A DNA stretch of 64,000 bases from positions 2,208,001-2,272,000 of the forward strand of contig CAVTCS010000003.1 of NCBI GenBank assembly GCA_963733295.1. The letters are read 5' to 3'. A program made the position numbers and the translations under genes. The notes beneath the pieces are model-generated. The model did no database searches, had not been told where the DNA came from, and saw only the letters and a program-made list of their open reading frames with translations. Origin of the DNA: Vulcanimicrobiota bacterium (lineage in GTDB: Bacteria > Vulcanimicrobiota > Vulcanimicrobiia > Vulcanimicrobiales > Vulcanimicrobiaceae). Positions within the stretch are counted from its first letter, which is position 1, and the number at the start of each line of letters is the position of its first letter. Positions 50,498-64,000 of the stretch are shown here, in pieces.

Positions 50498-52003
50498 CTA
50501 CGACGTCGCAGGTTCTACGAAAACTTCTCTGTAGAGATCCGGTCCGTAACTCGTCTCGAGCGGCGCTCCTTGCGCAATCTTGAAGGTACGACGTCCGTCG
50601 TCCAGGCGCTCGGCACGTAAGAAAAGCGCGGATGGTAGGTCTCGCGTCTGTAAGCCATGCGCAAACGCATATTGATGGGTCACGAAAAACACCTTGACAT
50701 CGTTCTCGATCAACGCGTCGACGATCTGACGGGCGATCTCGGAGCCTTCGCGCTCATTTGTTGCAGCGAACGATTCATTGAATAAGATCAGGGAGTTTGC
50801 CCTTAGGCCGTCGACAATGTCGCTCAGTCGGCGAAGCTCCTCATCGAACTTGCCGCTGTTCATTGTGGCGTCTTCTTCGCGCTTGTAGTGAGTGACGACT
50901 CTCTCGCAAACATCTGCACAAAGAGCCTCAGCCGGCGCAAACATCCCGCACTGCATCATCAGTTGTGCGAGACCGACGCTTCGCAGAAACGTCGACTTGC
51001 CACCCTGATTGGCACCGGTAATGATGATGAGAGTCTTGCCGTCAGCAGCGAGATCGTTGCTGACGACGGGACCGTTTGCGCTCAAAGTTAGGCTGACGTC
51101 GTAGAGGCCGGTCGCCGAATAACGCCGTGCCCCGACCGGACAGGGGGAAGGCAAACAGATCGACTCTCCCAGCTCGCTCAGCCTGTCATGCAAATTCAGG
51201 CACCCGACGTAGAACGCGAGCTCGGTTCGCAGCATCTCGAAAAAGCTCGTCAGATGCTCGGCCGACTGCGCAACCGCATTCGCCACGAGGTTGATACCGC
51301 GGTCGTTGAGCTGGGACAATGCACGCGCACCGCTTTCGTCACGGGGGTGAAGTTCGTACGAAAAAGCCGGCGCCTTCGGTGCGAAGAGGCGCGTCAACCA
51401 ATCGCCGTGCGCCGAACTTTGCTTGCGAAGAACATAATCCGTTCCCTTATTGCCTTCGCCTAAGCGCGCACTGAGCAAGATGCCGCGGTCGAATTTCAGT
51501 TCGTTGAGATGGCGCTCGATCGTTGCGAAGTATTCGTCGTCAAGTTCTTCAGCAAGGGAAGCAAAGAGCCGGCAGAAGCCCTCAGATCGGAAGGAGCTCG
51601 CATGCCGATCGACGATCGTCCGCAGCCTCCTCAGCATTGCGACAAGCATCTCCAAGAGGTTGACCGCCCGGTAGAGGATCGAGCGCGGGTGCCGGCCGCC
51701 GTCAAAATAGTGGTTTCGCCGCTTGGATTCCAAGGTCTCGACGGCGAGGTCATAGATCTCCCGGACGACCGCCGGATCGTTCATGCAGTCCTTCAGGATC
51801 TCCTGACGATAGCAGATCGTTTCGATGTCGGTAACGCTCCCGAGAACGGCCCTCTTTACGACTTCAGCCAGCGGCTTGTTGCCACTCGACATTGCGCCGA
51901 AGAGCGCTTCGAGTCCCAAGTCCGCGACGAGCGCATCCGCTTGCTGCGGCAGGTTGGCCCCGAAATCGAAATCCCGGTCCTTGTACATCAAATACGCGTT
52001 CAT
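50498..52003 (-). CDS. Small MutS-related ATPase (domain V, no mismatch-binding domain), copy B
   Basis: ITGANQGGKSTFLRS, HYKREED, GKFDEEL, LFNESFAATNEREG, FVTH. Confidence 0.9.
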   Translation of the reverse strand: MNAYLMYKDRDFDFGANLPQQADALVADLGLEALFGAMSSGNKPLAEVVKRAVLGSVTDIETICYRQEILKDCMNDPAVVREIYDLAVETLESKRRNHYFDGGRHPRSILYRAVNLLEMLVAMLRRLRTIVDRHASSFRSEGFCRLFASLAEELDDEYFATIERHLNELKFDRGILLSARLGEGNKGTDYVLRKQSSAHGDWLTRLFAPKAPAFSYELHPRDESGARALSQLNDRGINLVANAVAQSAEHLTSFFEMLRTELAFYVGCLNLHDRLSELGESICLPSPCPVGARRYSATGLYDVSLTLSANGPVVSNDLAADGKTLIIITGANQGGKSTFLRSVGLAQLMMQCGMFAPAEALCADVCERVVTHYKREEDATMNSGKFDEELRRLSDIVDGLRANSLILFNESFAATNEREGSEIARQIVDALIENDVKVFFVTHQYAFAHGLQTRDLPSALFLRAERLDDGRRTFKIAQGAPLETSYGPDLYREVFVEPATS

Positions 52004-53583
52004 GACTGGGTCCCGGAGGGAAGGCGCGCCTTGAGCTGTTCGTAGGTCAGACCGTACTTCTCCGCGATAGAAAGCGCATAGGCGCGCCCGTCCGCCGGGC
52101 GACGCAGCACCTTGTAGGTTCGCTTCGTCGGATCGGTCGGGTTGACGACGCTCACCATGCTCACCGTCTTCTCATTCAACGACGCGAGCTCGTCGAGGAA
52201 CGTTACGCAGACGCAAATCGCGTCGAGCTCTACGATCTTGTCGAGCACCCGGCGGGCTAGGAACACCGCGTCTTCGAGCGAGGTCGAACTGAAGACTTCG
52301 TTCATGATGATGATGCTGCGCGGAGTCGCGCAATCGAGGATGTCGCGAAACCGGATTAAGTCGTCTTGAAGCTTTCCCCGTAAGGTCTCGACGCGCTCTT
52401 GCTTTTCAAAATGGGTGAAAATGGAGTCGAAAAGAAATAGACGAGCGGAACTTCCGGGAACCGGACAACCGATGCTGGCGAAATGATGCACTTGTCCGAA
52501 GGCACGAGCGAAGGTCGTTTTTCCGCCTTGATTCGGGCCCGATACGACGAGGACACGCTCGGGGCCGTCGAGACGAAAATCGTTGCAGACGATCGGCGCT
52601 GACTCATTAAAGAGCTTCGTCGCCAAAGCGAGATCGAACGCCGCTCGGTCGTACACGTCCTTGTCCCGGGCCGATACTGTCGGGTAACAAAACGCGAGGC
52701 CGGCTTTCTTGAATCGCTCTGCGTAACCAAGGTATGCCATGTAAAACTGAATCTCGCGATCGAAGCGCCCGACGAGCGCGTCCGCGAACTCGCGGTTCGC
52801 GGTACAAAATTCGTCTAATCGTCGGAAAGGCTCCGGATTGAACCGAGCGACGAACCCGAGGATGATTTCTTCGACGTGATTCATGTCGACGGATTCCGTG
52901 AACGCGCACAAGTAGTTCTTTGCGGCGCTGCGCCGAAATTTGGCGAACGTAGCTGCGATTTCGTCGCTGTAGTTAGGCTCGGAGTCGTAATTTCGAACCT
53001 CGAATCGGCTGCCCTTGATGTGGATCGAGTACGCAAGCGCTTGCAAGTCGCGTGAAAGCGCGCCCACCTGCGCAGCGAGCCCGGTAAAGCGCTCCGATGC
53101 TAGGTACTCGCTTAAATAGCCGTGGAACGACCGTAGGCCGCGTGAGGTGAGGTTAAGCCCCCGCAAGCCCTCTTCGAGCGCGCGCACGGCGCTGAGATAC
53201 GTCGCTATGGCGCGCAGACACCAGGCCTCTTTGTTATACGTGTAGTGCAGTTTCTCGGCTTGAGCGAGCTGTTGCCGCATCAGGCGCATGCCGTCCGCGA
53301 ACGATACGATGCACGCGAAGGCGGCCTCTTCCTCGAGATCGCGCATGACCTCTTGCCGGTAGAGAATAGCGTCGAGGTCCCTGAGGGAATCGTAGAAGAA
53401 CGGCCTTAGATCGTACTCATCCTTCCCGTGCGTTATCGCGTCGAGGATTTGATCGAGGTTGAGGTCGTGAAAGTACTCAGGGGTGTGCCCGCGCACTGAT
53501 CGTTCCCTCTCGCCGCCCCGTTCGTAAAGGATGCTCTCGAACGTCTGCGCACGAGCGCCGTCCGGAAGAGTCTCAGTCGCCAT
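52000..53583 (-). CDS. Small MutS-related ATPase (domain V, no mismatch-binding domain), copy A
   Basis: DLNLDQI, VSGPNQGGKTTFAR, THFEKQE, GKLQDDL, IMNEVFSST, VTFLDEL; ATGA overlap with copy B. Confidence 0.9.
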   Translation of the reverse strand: MATETLPDGARAQTFESILYERGGERERSVRGHTPEYFHDLNLDQILDAITHGKDEYDLRPFFYDSLRDLDAILYRQEVMRDLEEEAAFACIVSFADGMRLMRQQLAQAEKLHYTYNKEAWCLRAIATYLSAVRALEEGLRGLNLTSRGLRSFHGYLSEYLASERFTGLAAQVGALSRDLQALAYSIHIKGSRFEVRNYDSEPNYSDEIAATFAKFRRSAAKNYLCAFTESVDMNHVEEIILGFVARFNPEPFRRLDEFCTANREFADALVGRFDREIQFYMAYLGYAERFKKAGLAFCYPTVSARDKDVYDRAAFDLALATKLFNESAPIVCNDFRLDGPERVLVVSGPNQGGKTTFARAFGQVHHFASIGCPVPGSSARLFLFDSIFTHFEKQERVETLRGKLQDDLIRFRDILDCATPRSIIIMNEVFSSTSLEDAVFLARRVLDKIVELDAICVCVTFLDELASLNEKTVSMVSVVNPTDPTKRTYKVLRRPADGRAYALSIAEKYGLTYEQLKARLPSGTQS

Positions 53584-55291
53584 GCGAAGCGCTCAGTACG
53601 TTGGGCGACGAACACGTTCCCGAAGTTTGCATGCTCGCTGCGTGCGCGAACTGCCGCAACCGATCCGCGGCCTGCTCGAGTTCGCTCGAGCGCCGGGCGA
53701 TTGCTTCAGCTTCGTCTGCGCCTTCCACCGCCTGCTGGAGCGCACGCCCCGCGTCGGCTCGCGCGCGCTCCAGAGAGGCCCCGACTTGCTGCGCGAGGGT
53801 CGCGTATCCATCTCGAATCGCTTGATTCGCGCGGTAGCGGATCCGGCCCGCGCGCCGATCGAGCTGCGCCTCGAGCTCGCTCCGCAGGCGGCGCGCCAGA
53901 AGTGTCGCCCGGACCGGCTGCGGAAGCAAGCCGTCGACGGCCCGCGCGACGAGCTCGGCTCCGGTCGTGGCTTGCTCGTCGGCGTATTCGAAGCGAAGTG
54001 CCGGGAGCTCAAAGGCCAATTCGGGCGGCGCGAGCGCGCCGAGCCCTAGGCCGGCAAGACCTTCAGCAATCGTGCTGCGTTCGAGGTCGACGGTGCGCGC
54101 GACGACGCGCTCCATGTTTCGCTGCATTCGCGCCTGGAGTTCGCGACGGACCTCTTCGACCCACGCGGTCGCAGCGGAGCCAACACCGTCGGCAATGCCC
54201 TGGCGATACGCTAACAGGTCGCCGTGCTCTACAGCGGACCGCAGCCGCTGCTCCAGGGATACGAGCGCTTCACGCTTGCGGTCCTCGAGCCGCTGCTCGA
54301 TAAGGCGCAGATCCTCGCGTGCCGCTCGATCGAGCGTGTCGACGATTTCGCCTGCGCGTCGCGGGAGTTCACTCTCGAAGGTTGCAAAGCGCTCTGCGAG
54401 CGCCGCTCGACGCTCGAGCGGCAAACGCAGCGCTTCGCGCTCGATCAGGAGAGAACGGAGCAACCACGCGGCGTCGCGTGTAGCTTTTCGGCGCAGCGAT
54501 CGCTCAAAGACTTCACGACCGTGCGCTTCGACGAAATCTCGAAACGTTGCCACGAAGTCGCCGAGTCCCTGGCCTCTTGTCGCACTCAGCGGGAAAATGC
54601 GAACGTCGCCATCCTCGCGCGCTCCGGCCAGGGTTTTGCGCGTGAACTCTATCAGTGGTTCTCGCTCCTTGTCATTGACGATTTGATCGACTTTGTTCAG
54701 CACGATGAAGAGGCGCTCCGAGGCATCGAGCACCTTACGCGCAAAGGCGAGTTCGGCCTCACCGATGGGTGGCTCGGCGCCGACCACGAGAATAGCGAGA
54801 TCGGCCCGCGTTAGCGTTTCTAGCGCAGCCCCGGTGTTGTGTGCGTACGTCGAGGCGATGCCGGGGGAGTCGATCATTGCGACCCCAGCGAGGATGGGAG
54901 CGGGCACGGTAACGGCGGCGCTCCGAACCAGCAGGCGATTTTCCGGATTGCCCTGTTCGGTGACGTAGCGCTTTAGTTCGGGGGGCGAGATCTCGAGCGG
55001 CGGCCGCGCTTCATCGAGAAACTCGATCGTTACGCGCAATGGACCGAAGCGGACGACGGTCGGGATCGCCGTAACCGGCAACATGCCGGTTGGCAGCAGG
55101 TCCGTCCCCAAAAGCGCGTTGATGAAGGTGCTCTTGCCGCGTTTGAACTGACCAGCCACGACCACGGTCAGCTCGCGCCTGCACTCCTCGTCTCGCAGCC
55201 GCTCGATCGCCGAAATCGCCGACGGGGAGCCGAACCGGCGAGCCAGTCCCAGCAGTTCTTCCGAGTCGGAATTGCCGTTACGGCCGTTCAC
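53573..55291 (-). CDS. Bacterial dynamin-like GTPase with helical stalk
   Basis: G1 GQFKRGKS, G2 LPVTA, G3 DSPG, G4 NKVD; probable GTG start 55291 (ORF open to 55396). Confidence 0.88.
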   Translation of the reverse strand: MNGRNGNSDSEELLGLARRFGSPSAISAIERLRDEECRRELTVVVAGQFKRGKSTFINALLGTDLLPTGMLPVTAIPTVVRFGPLRVTIEFLDEARPPLEISPPELKRYVTEQGNPENRLLVRSAAVTVPAPILAGVAMIDSPGIASTYAHNTGAALETLTRADLAILVVGAEPPIGEAELAFARKVLDASERLFIVLNKVDQIVNDKEREPLIEFTRKTLAGAREDGDVRIFPLSATRGQGLGDFVATFRDFVEAHGREVFERSLRRKATRDAAWLLRSLLIEREALRLPLERRAALAERFATFESELPRRAGEIVDTLDRAAREDLRLIEQRLEDRKREALVSLEQRLRSAVEHGDLLAYRQGIADGVGSAATAWVEEVRRELQARMQRNMERVVARTVDLERSTIAEGLAGLGLGALAPPELAFELPALRFEYADEQATTGAELVARAVDGLLPQPVRATLLARRLRSELEAQLDRRAGRIRYRANQAIRDGYATLAQQVGASLERARADAGRALQQAVEGADEAEAIARRSSELEQAADRLRQFAHAASMQTSGTCSSPNVLSASHGD

Positions 55292-55371
55292 GCCGTGGCT
55301 CGCAAAACTTCCGCGCGGGCGCTCGACGCGCGATGGCGGCTTCGGGAGGGTCGACGATAGTCGTTGTACAC
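55288..55371 (-). CDS. Putative leader peptide (MYNDYRRPSRSRHRASSARAEVLRATA)
   Basis: GGAG SD 9 nt upstream of GTG; TGA overlaps the dynamin GTG (GTGA). Confidence 0.4.
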   Translation of the reverse strand: MYNDYRRPSRSRHRASSARAEVLRATA

Positions 55372-55397
55372 TGCCACGGACTCCAGGTTGCTGCACT

Positions 55398-55443
55398 AGG
55401 AGTCATCAGCCGTTTCCGGCGGTCGTGGCGAACTCCATCGCCC
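55398..55443 (-). ncRNA. Fluoride riboswitch (crcB motif) no. 1, upstream of the dynamin/MutS operon
   Basis: GGGCGATGGAGTTCGCCACGACCGCCGGAAACGGCTGATGACTCCT: P1 GGCGA/TCGCC, pseudoknot GGAGT/ACTCC, P2 GCCG-GAAA-CGGC, conserved GATGG and CTGATG. Confidence 0.92.
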
Positions 55444-55685
55444 ACAGGATGGTTCTGCGGTGACTCCCGAAATCATCTCATATGAGCTGCCCGGTCCGGA
55501 GGGCGCGACGTCGCGAGGGCTGACGAAGCAGAGAAGGGACACGGGACGGCGTTCGCACGCGACACGAAAGGGTTACGCGCGAAATGTCGCGCTATCCGAC
55601 ATCGCGACTTCTGGCGATCTTGTTGCTCCAGCGCTGCAACTTTTCGTCGTAGGAAGCCAACCGCTCCCTGCAGTATAGGTATCTC

Positions 55686-55731
55686 GGGCGATGGAGTTCG
55701 CCACAACCGCCGGAAACGGCTGATGACTCCT
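55686..55731 (+). ncRNA. Fluoride riboswitch no. 2
   Basis: GGGCGATGGAGTTCGCCACAACCGCCGGAAACGGCTGATGACTCCT; followed by CTCCTC/GAGGAG SD-sequestering hairpin; TATAGG -10-like box just upstream. Confidence 0.93.
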
Positions 55732-57025: not shown

Positions 57026-57086
57026 CTCGCGCGGCCATGAACCGCGACGCGGGAAGAGCCGCTTGGCCAACGAAGATACGAGGGAA

Positions 57087-57130
57087 GGGCGATGGGGCTC
57101 GCCCGAACCGCCGTGAGGCTGATGGCTCCT
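57087..57130 (+). ncRNA. Fluoride riboswitch no. 3, upstream of the metallophosphoesterase
   Basis: GGGCGATGGGGCTCGCCCGAACCGCCGTGAGGCTGATGGCTCCT: P1 GGGCGA/TCGCCC, pseudoknot GGGGC/GCTCC, P2 GCC-GTGA-GGC; GCTCC/GGAGC hairpin hides the SD. Confidence 0.9.
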
Positions 57131-57153
57131 GGTCGATCGAACCGGAGCGCGCT

Positions 57154-57906
57154 ATGAAGAGCCTCATTATCGCCGACGTTCACGCAAATTGGGCGGCCCT
57201 CGAAGCGCTGCCCGCTGCGGATCTTGTCGTCTGCGCAGGCGACATGGTAACTTTTGGGCCGCAGCCCGGCGCAGTCATCGATGCTCTCGCCAAGATCGGC
57301 GCTCGCTGTGTGCGCGGGGACGAAGACGATGCGGTTGCGCGCAATTTGCGGCGTGAAGCAGCGCCGGGGCTCGAGTCCGCCGCCGACGAAACCCGGGTCT
57401 GGACGCGCTCGGTCCTCACGAAAAACCAGATGCGCTGGTTGGGCGAACTCCCGTTTGAAATCGAGGTGGAGGCCGGCAGTGTGCGGCTGGCTGCCACCCA
57501 CGCGTATCCCGGCGTCATCAACCGCTACCTCCGCCCGACGCGCGAGGAACTGGAGCGTGTCGCCCGAGCATTCCCCCGAGCGAACATCGTCGTAGTTGGC
57601 CACACGCATCGCAGTGGCATTTGGCAAGTCGGCGGAACGACGATCTTGATGCCGGGAAGCGTCGGGCAGTCAAGCCATGGCGGGCATGCATCGTTTGCTC
57701 AGATCGAAGGCAGCACCGTTACCCTTCGTGAGCTTCCGTACGACGTCGACAGAACGATCGAACAGATTCGCGCCACTCCTTGGAGCGCAAGCGCAAAGGA
57801 GAGCTGCATACGCGCCCTCCAACTTGGCGCCCCGCGGCCGTACGAATCCGTTCTGCCGAAGGATGTCGAGCGTCGCTTGGCCGTAGGTCCCGCGCGCGGT
57901 AAGTGA
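57154..57906 (+). CDS. Calcineurin-like metallophosphoesterase
   Basis: ADVHAN, AGDMV, RGDED (in place of GNHD), THA, VGHTH, PGSVGQ. Confidence 0.88.
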   Translation: MKSLIIADVHANWAALEALPAADLVVCAGDMVTFGPQPGAVIDALAKIGARCVRGDEDDAVARNLRREAAPGLESAADETRVWTRSVLTKNQMRWLGELPFEIEVEAGSVRLAATHAYPGVINRYLRPTREELERVARAFPRANIVVVGHTHRSGIWQVGGTTILMPGSVGQSSHGGHASFAQIEGSTVTLRELPYDVDRTIEQIRATPWSASAKESCIRALQLGAPRPYESVLPKDVERRLAVGPARGK

Positions 57907-57930
57907 CCGCCAATCGCAGACTCAGGAAGG

Positions 57931-58290
57931 ATGGCAACCTTGGCCCAAGTCCACGAGAGTTCAAAGGCGGATCCAGGACCCGAAGCAACGCGCGCCCGAA
58001 TTCGCTCGCTCGCGGCTTTTGTTGCTTTGGTGGCGGGTGCATTCGTGCCGGCGCCTCGTGGCCAATTCCTACCATCTTCCTGGTCTTGCTGCTGTTTCTT
58101 GAGCCGATTCGAGCGAAGACCGGGTACGTCACACTTTTGATCGGCTGCATCGTAGCCGCAATCTTACCTAGCATCGGCTGGGCGATCGCTACTCACCATC
58201 TTGCGTTTTAATGCCGTGCTTGTTGCTTCCGGGCTGATCCTTGCGAGCTTAGCGCGGCTGGCCGCGCCTCGGCAAGCTGTGTCGAAGTAG
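57931..58290 (+). pseudogene. Small multi-TM membrane protein apparently broken by two compensating frameshifts
   Basis: AGGAAGG before ATG 57931; hydrophobic segments continue in the 57903 frame from ~58050 and return to the original frame at the TTTT run 58206-58209, ending TAG 58290. Confidence 0.45.
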
Positions 58291-58361
58291 CTCAAGCGCC
58301 CATGATCCCTGCCAGGAGGGTCGCCAAAGCCCATGTCTAAGAGCAGCGAAAAATTCAAAGC

Positions 58362-58411
58362 CGCGATGGAGCTCGCGTTAAGCCCACAACAACTGGGATG
58401 ATGGCTCCTAC
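58362..58411 (+). ncRNA. Fluoride riboswitch no. 4, upstream of the Ehr operon
   Basis: CGCGATGGAGCTCGCGTTAAGCCCACAACAACTGGGATGATGGCTCCTAC: P1 CGCGA/TCGCG, pseudoknot GGAGC/GCTCC, P2 CCCA/TGGG, 3' CCTAC. Confidence 0.85.
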
Positions 58412-58448
58412 TCAGACCTTCCGAGTGCGGAGCCGGCTTTGTTTCTTT
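58403..58448 (+). terminator. Intrinsic terminator forming the expression platform of riboswitch 4
   Basis: GGCTCC-TACTC...GAGTG-C-GGAGCC stem uses the aptamer 3' strand; followed by GGC TTTGTTTCTTT. Confidence 0.7.
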
Positions 58449-58487
58449 CAGCACACCTAAATCGAAACCAATTGCGGCGGGCGAGCT

Positions 58488-59438
58488 TTGGCGCAATCGA
58501 TCGCGCTTAACGCTGCGCAGTTGGCGTTCGTTCTACTCCTCTCACCGCTCTTTAGCGGGCTCTTAACCCGATGCAAAGAGATCGTTCAGTCGAAGCGTGG
58601 GCCGAGCGTCTTTCAGCCGTATCGCGACTTGCGCAAACTCTTGGGAAAAGACGAACGAATACCGGATGAGAGCACCTGGATCTTCCGAGCAGCGCCGTAT
58701 TTCGTCTTCGTCGTTCCGTTGATCGTTACGTTGCTGATCCCGGTCCTCACCGATTTTCCGCTGTTCTTCGCATTCGCCGGCGACATGCTGGCCGTTGGTT
58801 TTATTCTCGCTATCTCGGGATTTTTCTTCACGTTGGCGGCGATCGATGGAGGCAACCCCTACGGGGCAATGGGAGCGAGCCGAACCCGTATGGTTGGGTT
58901 CTTGGCCGAGCCGGTCATCATCATCGTGCTCTTCACCGTGTCGTTCGTCGCGAATTCGACAATTCCGTACATCGTGCAGCAACATTGGATTCACCCAATC
59001 GCGAACTTCTTCGCGCCATCGCACATTCTGTTGCTGATAGCATTTTTCATGATCATTCTCGCGGAGACCGGAAAGCTTCCAGTCGACAACCCAAGCGGCC
59101 ACTTTGAGCTCGCCATGATCGACGAGTCGAAGGCCCTGGAATTCTCGGGCCGCGGGGCGGCCTTAATCAAATACGGCGGCTACATGAAGTTCACGGTTTT
59201 GGCGATCGTTTTTCTCAACGTGCTGGTAGCGCCATGGGGCCTCGCTCAACATGCCTCGCCGCTAGCCGTGCTAGTTGCGGGAGGGGCAGTCGCCTTGAAG
59301 ATCTTGGCGCTCGTAGGAGCAATCGTCATCGTCGAGTCGTCGCTTGCCAAACTCCGGCTCTTTCGTATCTCGGAATTCCTTGGCGCCGCTTTCGTCATTT
59401 CGGTCACGGCGATGGTAACGCAGCTGCTGAGCTTTTAG
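58488..59438 (+). CDS. hyfC: Hydrogenase-4/Ehr membrane subunit HyfC (NuoH-like)
   Basis: RGPSVFQPYRDLRKLLGK, GAMGASR, LAETGKLPVDNP, ELAMIDE, AKLRLFR. Confidence 0.9.
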   Translation: MAQSIALNAAQLAFVLLLSPLFSGLLTRCKEIVQSKRGPSVFQPYRDLRKLLGKDERIPDESTWIFRAAPYFVFVVPLIVTLLIPVLTDFPLFFAFAGDMLAVGFILAISGFFFTLAAIDGGNPYGAMGASRTRMVGFLAEPVIIIVLFTVSFVANSTIPYIVQQHWIHPIANFFAPSHILLLIAFFMIILAETGKLPVDNPSGHFELAMIDESKALEFSGRGAALIKYGGYMKFTVLAIVFLNVLVAPWGLAQHASPLAVLVAGGAVALKILALVGAIVIVESSLAKLRLFRISEFLGAAFVISVTAMVTQLLSF

Positions 59439-59458
59439 GGCGGCGGGGATACGGAAGC

Positions 59459-60124
59459 ATGACGCTGCTCTCGGAACTCAACGCGCTCGTTCTGGGTCTC
59501 TTCATCGTCAGTACGATCGCGATGACGGTCACCCGGCAGATCGGCGCGTGCATTCAGGTCTTCGTCGCGCAGTCGCTACTGCTGGCCGCGTCGGCCTTCT
59601 TGCTCGGCGCCGTATCGCTTTCGTGGCACCTGATTGCGCTCGGGTGCATCACGGTGGTCGGTAAGGCGATCGCGATCCCCTGGTTGCTGCGCGCACTGCT
59701 GCCGAACGAGGTCCATCGCACGCGCGAGCTTTCTCAGACGATCGACGTACCGACCGTGCTGCTCATCGCACTCGGACTCACGCTGTTAGGCTACGGATTC
59801 GCCGCCCACATCGCGCACGCCGCGCCGAATCTCTCGCCTGGTAACGTCTCGACGGGGGTTGCGGGCTTGCTCGTTGGCCTGCTGCTCTTGGCCGTCCGAA
59901 GCGAGGCGGTTCCGCAATTGCTCGGCATCTTAGCGATGGAAAACGGCGCGTTCCTCGCCGGCATCGCGATTGCATCGGACTTTCCGCTCATCGCGGAATT
60001 CGCAATCGCCTTCGACGTCCCGTTGCTGACGTTCATCGTCGCACTCTTAGCGCGTGCTGCGTACCGGCAGATCGGCACGACGGAGGTCGGTGGGCTTTCG
60101 ACGTTGCGCGAGCGCGTCCGATGA
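59459..60124 (+). CDS. hyfE: Hydrogenase-4/Ehr membrane subunit HyfE
   Basis: QSLLL, KAIAIPWLL, QLLGILAMENG, PLIAEFAIAFDV. Confidence 0.88.
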   Translation: MTLLSELNALVLGLFIVSTIAMTVTRQIGACIQVFVAQSLLLAASAFLLGAVSLSWHLIALGCITVVGKAIAIPWLLRALLPNEVHRTRELSQTIDVPTVLLIALGLTLLGYGFAAHIAHAAPNLSPGNVSTGVAGLLVGLLLLAVRSEAVPQLLGILAMENGAFLAGIAIASDFPLIAEFAIAFDVPLLTFIVALLARAAYRQIGTTEVGGLSTLRERVR

Positions 60125-61554
60125 TCTTCGCGATTCCCGGCGCTGCGCTGTTGGCAGCTTTATGGTGTGCGCTCCCCCGCAGCGGCCGGGCAGCGCCGCC
60201 GGTGACATTCGCCGGAGCGATAGCTGCGGTCTGCATCTCGCTGCGCGTGCTGTGGACGCTGCGCGCCGGCGGCACGGCCACAATCGTTCCCGGGTGGCTC
60301 GAAATCGATCCGCTGGCGGCCTTGCTCCTCGTACTGATCGCATTCGTTTACGCGACCGCGGCGCTCTTTTCGTGGGGTTACCTGGCCGATGAAACCGGGG
60401 GGCGTGGCCGCCTTTACTACGCCAATTTCAACCTGTTCACTTTCTCGATGCTCAGTATCCCACTCCTGACCGAGATGGGACTCGTTTGGATCTTCGTCGA
60501 GCTCACGACGCTCCTCTCGATCTTGCTGGTCAACTTTGCCGGTACTACCGAGTCGCTCGAAGCGGCTTGGAAGTACATGGTGCTCACGCTGCTCGGCGCG
60601 ACGGTCGCGGTCTTGGGCGTACTCGTGCTCTTTTGGGCGTTGCACGCTGCAGGTAGCACGGAGTTCAACTGGAACGGCTTGCGTGCTGCGGCGCCGCGCA
60701 TGCCGCACGCTTTGCTGGGTTTTGCCTTCGTGCTGATACTGGTCGGGTATGGCGCGAAGATCGGACTCGTCCCCCTGCACACCTGGCTTCCGGATGCGCA
60801 CAGTCAAGCGCCCTCACCGGTTTGCGCGATGTTGTCCGGTATCGAGACGAGCGTCGTTCTCTACGTGATTCTGCGGCTGCGCAACGTCTTTGCCGCGGAC
60901 CCGTCGCTCCACGTCGGAGCGTGGTTTGTGGCGGTCGGGCTCGTGTCGGCCGGCGCTGCCGCCCTGCTCGTCGTGCAGACGCACGATTACAAGCGTCTTT
61001 TTGCCTTTTCGACTGTGGAGCACATGGGGATCATTCTGACCTCCGCCGGAATCTTCACGCCGGCCGGCGACATCGCCGCGGTCTGGCAGTTGCTCGCTCA
61101 TAGCGTTACGAAATCATTTTGCTTCTACGCTGCTGGAGCGACGCTGATCGCGACCGGCACCCGTGACATCGTCGCGATTCGCGGCTTACTAGGGTCGAAC
61201 CGGATCGCTGCCGGGGCGCTCTTGGTCGGCGCTCTCGCAATCGGCGGGGCACCGCCGTTCGCCGTCTTTCTCAGCGAACTTGCCATCCTGCGCGCCGGTC
61301 TGTCGGCGCACGCATACGTGCTAGTCGCGCTCCTAGCGCTCTTCATCGTCGTTGCGTTTTTCGGATTGCTCTGGCACGTGATGCGGATGCTTGCGGGGCC
61401 GCCGAGCGAGAACCCGCAAGGCAAGCGCGTTCCCGCGACCTGCATCTGGGCATTGTGCCTGGCGGGGCTCCCGGTCGTGGTCTTTGGCATTTGGCTCCCC
61501 GAGGCATTGGGACGGGCGATTGAGAACGCGGCGCGCGCGCTAGGGACCTCGTAG
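60121..61554 (+). CDS. hyfF: Hydrogenase-4/Ehr antiporter-like subunit HyfF
   Basis: WIFVELTT, SLEAAWKY, GYGAKIGLVPLHTWLPDAHSQAP, YKRLFAFSTVEHMG. Confidence 0.9.
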   Translation: MIFAIPGAALLAALWCALPRSGRAAPPVTFAGAIAAVCISLRVLWTLRAGGTATIVPGWLEIDPLAALLLVLIAFVYATAALFSWGYLADETGGRGRLYYANFNLFTFSMLSIPLLTEMGLVWIFVELTTLLSILLVNFAGTTESLEAAWKYMVLTLLGATVAVLGVLVLFWALHAAGSTEFNWNGLRAAAPRMPHALLGFAFVLILVGYGAKIGLVPLHTWLPDAHSQAPSPVCAMLSGIETSVVLYVILRLRNVFAADPSLHVGAWFVAVGLVSAGAAALLVVQTHDYKRLFAFSTVEHMGIILTSAGIFTPAGDIAAVWQLLAHSVTKSFCFYAAGATLIATGTRDIVAIRGLLGSNRIAAGALLVGALAIGGAPPFAVFLSELAILRAGLSAHAYVLVALLALFIVVAFFGLLWHVMRMLAGPPSENPQGKRVPATCIWALCLAGLPVVVFGIWLPEALGRAIENAARALGTS

Positions 61555-61556
61555 GC

Positions 61557-63116
61557 GTGCTGACCGAAACACTCGAGACGCTACGCTCGGTCTGGCCTGC
61601 AGCCTCGTGGAAAGCGGAGGGTGACTCGGTCGCCGCGGCGATTCCGGTCGAGCATTTGTGCGAGCTGGCGGGGCGTCTTCGCGCGCGGGAATGGCGACTC
61701 GGTACGATCGTAGCGACCGACCGCGGAGCGGCGCTTGAACTGCGCTACTGCTTCTATGCAACTCGCCATCCCGGGTGGGCCCAGCTCGTCGTCGCCGTCG
61801 ATCCGCTAGAACGAACCCTGCCGAGCATCACGTCCACGGTCATCGCCGCCGATTGGTTCGAACGCGAAATCGAAGACCTGTTCTCGATCCGCTTTACGGA
61901 GCACCCACGCTTGGGTGATTTCGTTCTGCACAACGATCAATGGGCCGAAGACATGGGGCTCATGCGCCCGGGCGTTGAGTCGACCAGCGATGTACGGGAG
62001 GAACGGCGCGAATGGCGGCCGATGCGCGTGCTCGAGGAAGAGGGCGCCTTCGTGATGCCGATCGGACCGGTCTATTCCGGAGAGGCTGAGTCCGCGCTCT
62101 TCCTGTTGGAAACGGTGGGCGAAGATGTCGTACGCGCCATTCCTCGGCTGTTTTTCAAATACCGCGCCATCGAGAAACTGGCCGAAGGGCGGAGCGTGCG
62201 GGACGTTCTGCTGCTCGCCGAGCGCTGCGCCGGAACGAGCGCGATCGGGAACGGCCTTGCGTATTGTCACGCCGTCGAGCGCGCGCTGGGGCTTGAGGTG
62301 CCTCCACGCGCTGTCGCCTTGCGCGCGTTTTTCGCTGAGCTCGAGCGCGTGCGTCACCATATGACCTCCGTGCGAGAGGTGTGTACCTCGACGTCGCTGA
62401 CCGTCGCGGCGAGTCAGGCATTGTGGCTCGAGGAACAGCTGCTGCGACTCTGCGGCGAGTTGTGCGCACACCGCTATCTGTTCGGCGTGCTCGATGTCGG
62501 CGGTCTCATGCACGATTACGAGGCGGCGGCGCTCGAGCGTGCCGTGGCCGCGGTAGAAGCGATCTGTGTCCAGATCGACGCGCTGCGCGATGCCCTGGAG
62601 AATACGAGCAGCTTTCTGGATCGCATCGAGCAAGTCGGCGTCGTGAGCGAACCCGCCGCGCGGGCATTCGAGCTCGTGGGTCCGTTCGCGCGCGCAAGCG
62701 GAGTCTCGGCGGATATGCGAGCGATCCAACCTTACGGACCCTACGCGTCGATACCGTTCGACGTACCAACGGAGGTCGAGGGCGACGGGTATGCGCGCCT
62801 GCGCGTGCTGTTTGCGGAGATCAGGCAGTCGCTGCCGATCGCACGGGCGCTCGCGAGTGACTTGCCCGCGGGTTCGATTCGAACAGAAGCCGTAATGCGC
62901 GCCGGCAATGGTCTGGGCTGGACCGAAGCTCCGCGCGGCGCATCGGTGCAGTGGGCTGATGTGACCGCGGAGGGGAGCGTGCGCCGTTATCGCCTTACCC
63001 CGCCGTCGTTCCGCAACTGGCACGGTTTCCACGTCGCAACCGAAGAATTCGCCTTCCAGGACTTTCCGATCGTGCTCGCCACCCTCGACCTATCCGTTGC
63101 GGAGAACGATCGATGA
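61557..63116 (+). CDS. Ehr large subunit (HyfG/HycE-like NuoC+NuoD fusion) lacking Ni-binding cysteines
   Basis: WFEREIEDLF, HP, IGPV, ELERVRHH, EAPRG, PSFRNW, DFPIV; ERCAGTS and TLDLSVAENDR replace RxCGxC and DPCxxC. Confidence 0.9.
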   Translation: MLTETLETLRSVWPAASWKAEGDSVAAAIPVEHLCELAGRLRAREWRLGTIVATDRGAALELRYCFYATRHPGWAQLVVAVDPLERTLPSITSTVIAADWFEREIEDLFSIRFTEHPRLGDFVLHNDQWAEDMGLMRPGVESTSDVREERREWRPMRVLEEEGAFVMPIGPVYSGEAESALFLLETVGEDVVRAIPRLFFKYRAIEKLAEGRSVRDVLLLAERCAGTSAIGNGLAYCHAVERALGLEVPPRAVALRAFFAELERVRHHMTSVREVCTSTSLTVAASQALWLEEQLLRLCGELCAHRYLFGVLDVGGLMHDYEAAALERAVAAVEAICVQIDALRDALENTSSFLDRIEQVGVVSEPAARAFELVGPFARASGVSADMRAIQPYGPYASIPFDVPTEVEGDGYARLRVLFAEIRQSLPIARALASDLPAGSIRTEAVMRAGNGLGWTEAPRGASVQWADVTAEGSVRRYRLTPPSFRNWHGFHVATEEFAFQDFPIVLATLDLSVAENDR

Positions 63117-63850
63117 ACTGGTTCTTGCGCGGCTTGCGCGCCGGCGTGCGGACCGAGCGGGAGCCCGTGGGCCGCGACGCGGCGCTTTCCCTATCGCCTG
63201 GCCTTCCGCGTGCGACGCTGCATCCATCGACCCAAGCAGCCACCGACATTGCAAAGGTTTGCCCGACCGGCGCAATCGTTGCGGAAGAATCGGTCGCTCG
63301 CGTTCTCCAAGACCGCTGCGTTGAATGTATGCGATGCAAGGCGGCGGGGTCGAGCGCGCAAGGCTGGGACCAAAACGTCCGCGTCGCACACGCTCCCGAA
63401 GAGCGGGGATTCGATCCGCTCGATGGCAGCTTCAAGAGATCGCTCCACGTGCGCATCGTCGACGCCGGCGACTGCGGGTCGTGTTTGAACGAACTGGCGC
63501 AACTCAACGGTCCATCGTACAACCTCCACCGGTTCGGGATCTTTATTACGCCGACTCCGCGTCAGGCAGACGTGTTGCTCGTCGTCGGACCGGTGACGCG
63601 ACAGATGCGCGGCCCTCTCCGGGCCGCCTACGATGCAATGCCGGACCCGAAGCGCGTCGTTGCGGTCGGCGCGTGCGCCGCGAGCGGCGGAATCTTTGGT
63701 CCCTCCGTCATGTGTGCCGCAGGGGTGGCCGACGCGGTCCCGGTCGACCTCGTGGTCCCAGGATGCCCCCCGCCGCCGTTCGCGATCGTCCACGCGCTGC
63801 GCGCCGTGTGTGGGCAGCAACCACTCAATCTCGCGAGCGATCTGGCATGA
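63113..63850 (+). CDS. Ehr small subunit (HyfI/NuoB-like) with N-terminal ferredoxin remnant
   Basis: CPTGAI...CVECMRC; DAGDCGSCLNE, PRQADVLLVVGPVT, VGAC, PGCPP. Confidence 0.9.
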   Translation: MNWFLRGLRAGVRTEREPVGRDAALSLSPGLPRATLHPSTQAATDIAKVCPTGAIVAEESVARVLQDRCVECMRCKAAGSSAQGWDQNVRVAHAPEERGFDPLDGSFKRSLHVRIVDAGDCGSCLNELAQLNGPSYNLHRFGIFITPTPRQADVLLVVGPVTRQMRGPLRAAYDAMPDPKRVVAVGACAASGGIFGPSVMCAAGVADAVPVDLVVPGCPPPPFAIVHALRAVCGQQPLNLASDLA

Positions 63851-64000
63851 ACCAGTGGGAACTCGCCGTGACCCTCGCAGCCGTGGCACTTCCCATCGTC
63901 GGCGCGCTCGTGTGCCTCGTTTTGCCGGAACGAGCCGCCGTGCGCATTCTCACGGCAACCTGTTCCTGTGCTGCCGCTCTATCGCTTACGGCCGGCATCG
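63847..64000 (+). CDS. Membrane protein, probably HyfB-like antiporter subunit (3' truncated by window edge)
   Basis: ATGA overlap; hydrophobic MNQWELAVTLAAVALPIVGALVCLVLP...; HyfB is the subunit not yet seen in the operon. Confidence 0.5.
   Translation, partial: MNQWELAVTLAAVALPIVGALVCLVLPERAAVRILTATCSCAAALSLTAGI

Follow-up and report, generated by a model that had tools for sequence, protein, structure and literature searches.

What does a hydrogenase-like membrane complex that has lost the hydrogenase metal site do in a cell that senses fluoride? The question is raised by a stretch of 64,000 nucleotides (hereafter the window; positions 2,208,001 to 2,272,000 of contig CAVTCS010000003.1, assembly GCA_963733295.1) from a bacterium of the phylum Vulcanimicrobiota, at the end of which six genes for an energy-converting complex follow a fluoride riboswitch. 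The complex is classified here as Ehr-type, i.e., judging from its sequence, as a relative of the energy-converting hydrogenases without the NiFe site. We lean towards the interpretation that the operon is induced by fluoride and that its six-subunit product translocates cations or protons and so maintains the balance of ions and pH during fluoride stress.

Predicted fluoride control of a six-gene operon

The arrangement hyfC-hyfE-hyfF-large-small-hyfB directly behind the fourth of four riboswitches, which had been read from the DNA in the original prediction, was recovered with Rfam and Pfam, and the last gene, which runs past the end of the window, was confirmed as HyfB-like once it had been completed from the genome sequence beyond (Table 1). 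The six genes are closely spaced or overlapping. Downstream of the HyfB-like gene, a gap of 110 bases is followed by a gene for a GNAT acetyltransferase and then by genes on the opposite strand, and the operon is therefore taken to end with the sixth gene. A NuoH-like, a NuoK-like and two antiporter-type (Proton_antipo_M) subunits make up the membrane arm, while the peripheral arm consists of the NuoC-large fusion and the small subunit. The best NCBIfam names for the membrane subunits were hydrogenase 4 subunits B, E and F, all with scores below the equivalog cut-offs, and the HyfB-like subunit retains the hallmark motifs of antiporters, including the lysine in transmembrane helix 7 that is absent from HycC.

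All positions of the Rfam model RF01734 (1-64) were matched by the aptamer in front of the operon. Its two short stems, the GAUGG...C core and the 3' GAUG.CUCCUAC tail aligned with the consensus; the second stem contains one non-standard pair and has a loop that exceeds the consensus length. Under a covariance model built in this analysis (R2), the aptamer scored 57.3 bits. Only four matches to RF01734 were found in the whole 3.44-Mb genome, every one of them in the window and none more than 3 kb from the others.

The aptamer is followed by a hairpin and a U-rich tract, and its 3' tail doubles as the 5' arm of the hairpin. A hairpin and U-run overlapping the aptamer tail, with other stem sequences, recurred in four of the five relatives that were folded (L003, L010, L039 and L068), and the fifth (L023) has the hairpin and no U-run. 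This leader design suggests fluoride-dependent anti-termination. In the absence of fluoride, the aptamer's 3' tail would pair into the terminator hairpin; with fluoride, the tail would be kept in the aptamer and transcription would continue past the hairpin, which would make the element an ON switch.

Relatives of the large subunit are numerous: of 8,000 scored candidates, 2,398 matched at E <= 1e-10. The nearest named ones come from metagenome bins of Eremiobacterota and Acidobacteriota, and the source annotations read "formate hydrogenlyase subunit 5", "Ni,Fe-hydrogenase III large subunit" or "NADH-quinone oxidoreductase subunit C". When species genomes were scanned, at least 420 loci with a relative emerged, of which the best 80 (L003-L082), from about ten phyla and with many peat, bog or soil bins among them, were analyzed. 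Searches with the six proteins (tblastn) recovered the order C-E-F-L-S-B (HyfC-like, HyfE-like, HyfF-like, large, small, HyfB-like) in every one of the 80 loci that holds these genes. The gene order, which had been called unusual, is thus the norm in this family; it is unusual only beside the hyf operon of E. coli.

We then asked how often the riboswitch accompanies the operon. In total, 72 of the 80 loci were evaluable, in that the first gene is complete at its 5' end, and riboswitches were called with model R2, several of whose scores of 21-28 bits fell on sites that Rfam scored at 44-52 bits. The count of Ehr operons with an upstream fluoride riboswitch, proposed in the original prediction as a check, came to 71 of 72, all on the same strand, with the riboswitch at a distance of at most 400 nt in 63 loci and of 401-2500 nt in eight; one locus (L029) had no upstream riboswitch by R2. 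In seven of the eight more distant cases, the gene between riboswitch and operon was named by Pfam as CrcB (L024, L054), DUF190 (L026, L058, L063), a dynamin-like GTPase (L032) or a cytidylate-kinase-like protein (L070), and L028 had no resolved gene at this position. Matches to RF01734 itself were found in 45/45 and 31/32 carrier genomes, i.e. in 76 of 77, as compared to four of 14 control genomes; the sole miss was the genome of L081, in which the start of the operon is cut off. One locus, L051, comes from a genome flagged as unpublished (G046), and without it the counts are 62/71 (riboswitch within 400 nt) and 30/31. Since an upstream riboswitch was found in 71 of 72 loci from about ten phyla, fluoride control of the operon is, on comparative sequence evidence, real and ancient, and the view of the locus as a fluoride-gated Ehr-type complex with a genuine riboswitch stands.

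Another 77 riboswitches in these loci precede genes of the classical fluoride regulon, among others those for MutS-like proteins, NUDIX and DUF190 proteins, CrcB, AAA_16 ATPases, enolase (three loci), metallophosphoesterases and dynamin-like GTPases, as identified with Pfam. A crcB gene is present in 32 of the 80 loci, and in 20 of the 80 it shares the strand of the operon and is no more than 1.5 kb away from the operon ends. Two carrier genomes, G048 and G057, contain 16 and 12 matches to the fluoride riboswitch, respectively. Behind the operon, one or two further HyfB-like genes are present in L025, L028, L033, L040, L050, L054, L055, L059, L060, L069 and L077, and the membrane arm may thus be longer in some lineages; in L029 and L042, an additional HyfB-like copy lies ahead of the operon.

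Table 1. Features of the operon, its leader and the neighbouring riboswitches, in window coordinates.
Feature	Position	Strand	Evidence and remarks
Fluoride riboswitch aptamer (crcB motif, RF01734), riboswitch 4	58353-58417	+	Rfam, 39.7 bits (gathering score 34)
Putative terminator-type platform	hairpin 58403-58434, U-rich tract 58438-58448 (element 58403-58448)	+	RNA folding, -18 kcal/mol
HyfC/NuoH-like membrane subunit, 316 aa	58488-59438	+	TTG start; Pfam NADHdh 2e-31; relatives align from residue 1
HyfE-like (NuoK-type) membrane subunit, 221 aa	59459-60124	+	Pfam Oxidored_q2, weak; NCBIfam hydrogenase 4 membrane subunit (E) 56.3 bits (cut-off 136)
HyfF-like antiporter-type subunit, 477 aa	60121-61554	+	Pfam Proton_antipo_M 2.5e-48; NCBIfam hydrogenase 4 subunit F 282 bits (cut-off 543)
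Large subunit, NuoC-like domain fused with hydrogenase-large/NuoD-like domain, 519 aa	61557-63116	+	Pfam Complex1_30kDa, Complex1_49kDa, NiFeSe_Hases
Small subunit, N-terminal ferredoxin-like one-cluster domain and NuoB/HycG-like domain, 245 aa	63113-63850	+	Pfam Oxidored_q6; HycG (7z0s_G) 6e-30
Small-subunit residues 201-218	63713-63766	+	plastic fourth ligand of the proximal Fe-S cluster
HyfB/NuoL-like antiporter-type subunit, 711 aa	63847-64000, runs 1,982 bases past the window (L002 5847-7982)	+	Pfam Proton_antipo_M; HycC (7z0s_C) 1.8e-57; NCBIfam hydrogenase 4 subunit B 501.6 bits (cut-off 667)
Fluoride riboswitch	55390-55451	-	ahead of dynamin-like GTPase (53573-55396) and MutS_V genes (52000-53583 and 50498-52003)
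Fluoride riboswitch	55687-55731	+	ahead of a 133-aa coiled-coil ORF and a 228-aa ORF without family
Fluoride riboswitch	57079-57138	+	ahead of metallophosphoesterase (57154-57906)

The former NiFe site and the Fe-S cysteines

A profile of the large subunit was built from 22 homologues with 50-76% identity, which had been recruited by similarity alone. The best match of the profile was HycE of E. coli (7z0s_E, E 6.6e-77), and MbhL was matched with an E-value of 6.6e-45. In the alignment, the R-V-C-G-I-C and D-P-C-Y-(S-C) segments of HycE correspond to R-C-A-G-T-S and D-L-S-V-(A-E), and the four positions that bind NiFe in HycE are occupied by A, S, S and E. None of them is a cysteine, which bears out the original prediction that both CxxC motifs for Ni are missing, and the complex is thus, as judged from this alignment, one that cannot bind NiFe. 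The C-terminal octapeptide LSVAENDR is invariant in all 22 homologues. A [DG]LSV[AS]ENDR end is present in 78 of the 81 large subunits from the loci, although this count is partly circular since the loci had been recruited with two patterns, one of them this motif, and a CxxC motif anywhere in the protein was found in only one of the 81.

The absence of hyp maturation genes, noted earlier for the window, extends to the genome for HypD (PF01924), the only hyp family searched: no match was obtained in the 97.15% complete genome, in a search that was positive in four of the 14 control genomes. The large-subunit gene of the operon is the only NiFeSe_Hases match in the genome. Neither formate dehydrogenase H nor HycB/HycF is encoded in the operon, and the four matches to molybdopterin families lie elsewhere in the genome, none of them near the operon. 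The NCBIfam models for NuoD (189.5 bits, cut-off 360) and NuoB (113.3 bits, cut-off 116) were both matched below the cut-off, and one canonical NuoD is encoded elsewhere in the genome.

The small subunit aligned with HycG (6e-30) and MbhJ (7.3e-28), with C121, C124, C188 and C218 at the positions of their four cluster ligands, and its N-terminal extension contains a CP...CxxCxxC motif. The earlier claim that the small subunit keeps its Fe-S cysteines and a fused ferredoxin part was thereby borne out, and the protein is predicted to retain the cysteines of the proximal Fe-S cluster and those of an additional [4Fe-4S] cluster of the ferredoxin type. Seven of these cysteines, i.e. C50, C69, C72 and C75 in the ferredoxin-like domain together with C121, C124 and C188, occur without exception in the 76 small subunits compared, which come from about ten phyla.

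The founding paper on Ehr complexes is reportedly that of Marreiros et al. (2013). The operon shares with these complexes large and small subunits akin to those of group 4 hydrogenases, missing NiFe residues and Mrp/antiporter-like membrane subunits, and it was assigned to them by these features rather than from a tree with reference Ehr complexes. In the available parts of two papers, Ehr complexes are described as lacking the NiFe-coordinating residues and as having no known function, with formate dehydrogenase partners or no role being proposed (PMC6349859, PMC10284858). The word fluoride has zero occurrences in the part of PMC10284858 at hand, and that of PMC6349859 likewise makes no mention of it. 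In two loci, the riboswitch-controlled cluster is immediately preceded by another, distantly related Ehr-like cluster (L007:357-5129 and L080:177-6375), whose large subunit is 30-32% identical and has no CxxC motif and whose upstream DNA is cut off.

Among complexes of solved structure, the formate hydrogenlyase Hyc of E. coli (7Z0S) provided the best matches to the large, small and HyfB-like subunits. Unlike Hyc and Hyf, the operon encodes no NiFe ligands and none of HycB, HycF and FdhF, no HypD was found, the small subunit bears a fused ferredoxin-like domain, and the gene order is C-E-F-L-S-B. The Pyrococcus furiosus complexes MBH (6CFW) and MBS/Mbx (6U8Y) also combine a NuoB/NuoD-like arm with NuoH-like and antiporter-like subunits, and MBS is likewise a non-hydrogenase descendant, but the matches were weaker (MbsL 2.6e-35), the subunits are many more, there is no link to fluoride, and MBH keeps NiFe. 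Complex I (NDH-1) shares the NuoB, C, D, H, K, L and N-type subunits and the antiporter hallmark residues, whereas the operon includes no NADH module.

The implied novelty of the association between gene and riboswitch did not hold, because Weinberg had listed formate hydrogen lyase among the genes that follow the crcB motif already in 2010 (PMC2864571), and the association is repeated in a paper from 2021 and in a review from 2024 (PMC11139923). As far as its available text goes, the review counts formate hydrogen lyase among the commonest riboswitch-associated enzymes, cites Baker 2012 for it and describes it as oxidizing formate (PMC11139923). These genes have the same riboswitch class ahead of Hyc/Hyf-like genes and the same annotation as the family of the operon. 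They are very probably the same gene class, an identification made from riboswitch and annotation rather than from the original gene lists. The association itself is therefore in print under the hydrogenlyase name. However, the genes treated there as formate-oxidizing encode, in the operon and all relatives examined here, a protein without NiFe ligands, so that the complex cannot be a hydrogenlyase. With the label corrected in this way, relief of acid stress by release of H2 is impossible. No paper that links Ehr to fluoride, or that calls the riboswitch-linked hydrogenlyase genes NiFe-less Ehr, was found in full-text searches of the literature, a scope outside which Baker 2012 and its supplements lie; PMC11540253, a candidate for such a statement, was unrelated.

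Fluoride exporters and Na+/H+ exchangers in the order

No match to CrcB or CLC was obtained in the genome of the window. A recheck with ten CrcB proteins from relatives gave a best tblastn E-value of 0.15, and a profile of our own from these 10 sequences found none among 32,084 six-frame ORFs. Among 45 other carrier genomes, CrcB was found in 26, and both CrcB and CLC were missing in four.

We compared these patterns across 121 genomes of the order to which the window belongs, 120 of them at least 90% complete; one genome, G177, is flagged as unpublished and was counted as a carrier of riboswitch and exchanger. The Ehr complex was identified in 12 of the 121 genomes, CrcB in 76, CLC in 47 and a fluoride riboswitch in 74. 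All 12 Ehr carriers have a riboswitch, as compared to 62 of the 109 non-carriers. We considered whether the complex substitutes for missing exporters and rejected this explanation: CrcB is present in seven of the 12 carriers versus 69 of the 109 non-carriers, and both exporters are missing in 37 of the 121 genomes, irrespective of the Ehr complex.

A different gene emerged from the genomes without exporters. In nine of ten exporter-less genomes with a single riboswitch that were examined (L083-L092), the riboswitch is followed after about 10-50 bases by a gene for an Na+/H+ exchanger (Na_H_Exchanger, PF00999) of about 385 amino acids (e.g., L084:213-1373), which may be the sole fluoride-regulated gene in these relatives. 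Orthologs of this exchanger were identified in 49 of the 121 genomes, adjoining a riboswitch match in the places listed. A riboswitch was identified in 29 of the 37 genomes without either exporter. The exchanger is encoded in 27 of these 29 and the Ehr operon in the other two, namely the genome of the window and G154, while none has neither. Among all riboswitch-bearing genomes of the order, the exchanger was found in two of the 12 Ehr carriers as compared to 46 of the 62 others, in a cross-tabulation of kin genomes for which a Fisher test overstates the contrast and in which the exchanger was sought with one protein query. In two genera that hold both modules there is no overlap between them, with three Ehr and two exchanger genomes in g21 and two Ehr and three exchanger genomes in g25. 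The Ehr complex thus appears to be distributed as an alternative to the riboswitch-controlled Na+/H+ exchanger, regardless of whether CrcB and CLC are absent, and this distribution, within the order of the window, is new. The exchanger, which is controlled by the same riboswitch in the same order and largely in genomes without Ehr, is likely a functional analog, although it is a single-gene secondary transporter with no Fe-S arm and of unrelated sequence. A distribution as an alternative to the exchanger and independent of CrcB favors a role in ion and pH homeostasis over one in anion export.

Proposed function and rival explanations

Fluoride toxicity has been linked with entry as the weak acid hydrogen fluoride (HF), acidification of the cytoplasm and loss of the proton-motive force, and fluoride-adapted yeast tolerates a lower internal pH, according to the available text of the 2024 review, in which Na+/H+ antiporters, tied to pH homeostasis, are the second commonest riboswitch-associated genes (PMC11139923). 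In the mechanism that we propose, the trigger would be an influx of HF that acidifies the cell, together with the block that fluoride imposes on phosphoryl-transfer enzymes. The Ehr complex would respond by moving cations or protons and thereby adjust the pH, the membrane potential or the Na+ gradient. It would be powered by electrons, and their entry via the ferredoxin-like domain is likely because the seven cysteines are invariant. Transport could proceed in either of two directions: the complex might extrude protons independently of the fluoride-sensitive phosphoryl transfer, or it might convert the pH gradient into a membrane potential or Na+ gradient, with the effect that less fluoride is trapped as a weak acid. 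In this manner, the Ehr complex would fill the physiological slot that is taken by the riboswitch-controlled Na+/H+ exchanger in sister genomes. The function suggested in the original prediction, i.e. redox-driven translocation of ions or protons that either expels fluoride or restores pH and proton-motive force after HF influx, accordingly divides into two parts. The part on ions, pH and proton-motive force gains indirect support from the distribution as an exchanger alternative, while expulsion of fluoride is disfavored by the similar frequency of CrcB in carriers and non-carriers and by the crcB genes that often lie beside the operon. Direct fluoride export by the complex is thus not supported.

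Several observations weigh against the homeostasis role or against parts of it. A scan for consensus promoters and terminators on the plus strand of 57900-58600 found neither a promoter-like site nor a terminator, and since it missed the hairpin, the terminator claim rests on folding and on recurrence in relatives. The Pfam search revealed no gene for an electron donor or acceptor in the operon. The sole cysteine of the ERCAGTS segment aligns with a valine of HycE, which is not a ligand position, and the former NiFe pocket is thus without cysteine. In comparison with the 49-kDa subunit of complex I (8ba0_D), the tyrosine of R-L-D-Y-V-S is replaced by glycine and the histidine of the A-A-H-G loop by alanine, two residues that we take to bind the quinone headgroup. 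With the pocket free of cysteine and both quinone residues replaced, the redox chemistry is unexplained. Moreover, the fourth ligand of the proximal cluster varies: C218, in a PGCPP motif, is a cysteine in 24 of the 76 small subunits, those of the clade of the window, whereas 40 have a cysteine 17 residues upstream, at position 201, instead, and 12 have neither. This variation may represent a swap of ligands or a three-cysteine cluster with an open iron site beside the former NiFe pocket. Finally, two of the 12 carriers contain both the Ehr complex and the exchanger, and the genomes that were cross-tabulated are kin.

Some of these points would be accommodated by a redox-independent, Mrp-like secondary antiporter for cations and protons, which would be driven by existing ion gradients and in which the peripheral arm and the Fe-S clusters would be structural or regulatory relics. 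Such an antiporter would require neither of the two sites that are missing, i.e. the catalytic metal site and the quinone-site residues, nor a partner dehydrogenase, for which the operon has no gene, and it would fit the variable fourth ligand and a distribution that resembles that of an alternative to a secondary Na+/H+ exchanger. We nevertheless regard it as unlikely, because the seven cysteines are invariant and because the likewise invariant octapeptide at the former NiFe site points to strong selection and not to a relic. A fluoride-tolerant stand-in for complex I, i.e. an oxidoreductase that passes electrons from ferredoxin or another donor to quinone, could be induced in the same manner as an extra enolase or pyrophosphatase that replaces an inhibited enzyme. 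Inhibited enzymes are commonly duplicated in fluoride regulons, as with the enolase genes behind neighboring riboswitches, a canonical NuoD is encoded elsewhere in the genome, and the NuoH-, NuoB- and NuoD-like subunits, which make up the chamber for quinone in complex I, are all present. The replaced quinone residues, the absence of NuoE, NuoF and NuoG genes from the operon and the NuoD and NuoB scores below the cut-offs make this explanation distinctly improbable, and complex I is not known to us as a fluoride target.

It is also very improbable that the complex itself is a primary pump for fluoride or HF that replaces Fluc/CrcB and CLC-F. The idea draws on a genome with four fluoride riboswitches that has neither CrcB nor CLC, and on the other carrier genomes in which both are missing. 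However, CrcB is present in more than half of the carriers in both genome sets and is encoded close to the operon in a quarter of the loci, exporter-less genomes occur in the order with or without the Ehr complex, and the membrane subunits retain charged residues of the cation/proton type. To a functional formate hydrogenlyase or [NiFe] hydrogenase of group 4, which would consume protons as H2, we give virtually no credence: the names of the homologues and the subunits of formate hydrogenlyase as best solved relatives speak for it, but all four NiFe cysteine positions are replaced, CxxC motifs are next to absent from the large subunits, no HypD was found, and the operon contains no gene for formate dehydrogenase.

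We therefore return to the translocation of cations or protons as the preferred output of the Ehr complex. A more far-reaching version, which we consider doubtful, is that in bacteria without a known fluoride exporter the complex would be the main defense, as the exchanger would be in sister genomes, by acting as a cation/proton pump fed via Fe-S clusters that re-shapes the ion gradients, keeps the membrane energized and shrinks the pH gradient that traps fluoride as HF. If this were true, it would be the first physiological role for Ehr complexes and a route to fluoride tolerance that is independent of exporters. In either version, the pairing with the riboswitch gives the orphan Ehr complexes a testable role in fluoride stress. 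Because one large branch of these complexes, with relatives in the 420 or more loci of the scan, is nearly always linked with the fluoride riboswitch, the probable inducing condition is available to experimenters.

The three further riboswitches of the genome are located directly upstream of the operon, in the segment 55390-58211 of the window, together with the genes that follow them (Table 1). The ORFs of 133 and 228 codons behind the second of these riboswitches are each kept in about ten loci of relatives and are located behind a riboswitch in L005, L008 and L011. Between the phosphoesterase gene and riboswitch 4, there is an additional ORF for 102 amino acids (57903-58211) with a hydrophobic C-terminal half. 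It was considered as a hidden exporter and rejected, as Pfam gave no match for it and relatives lack a conserved counterpart, and it may not be a gene.

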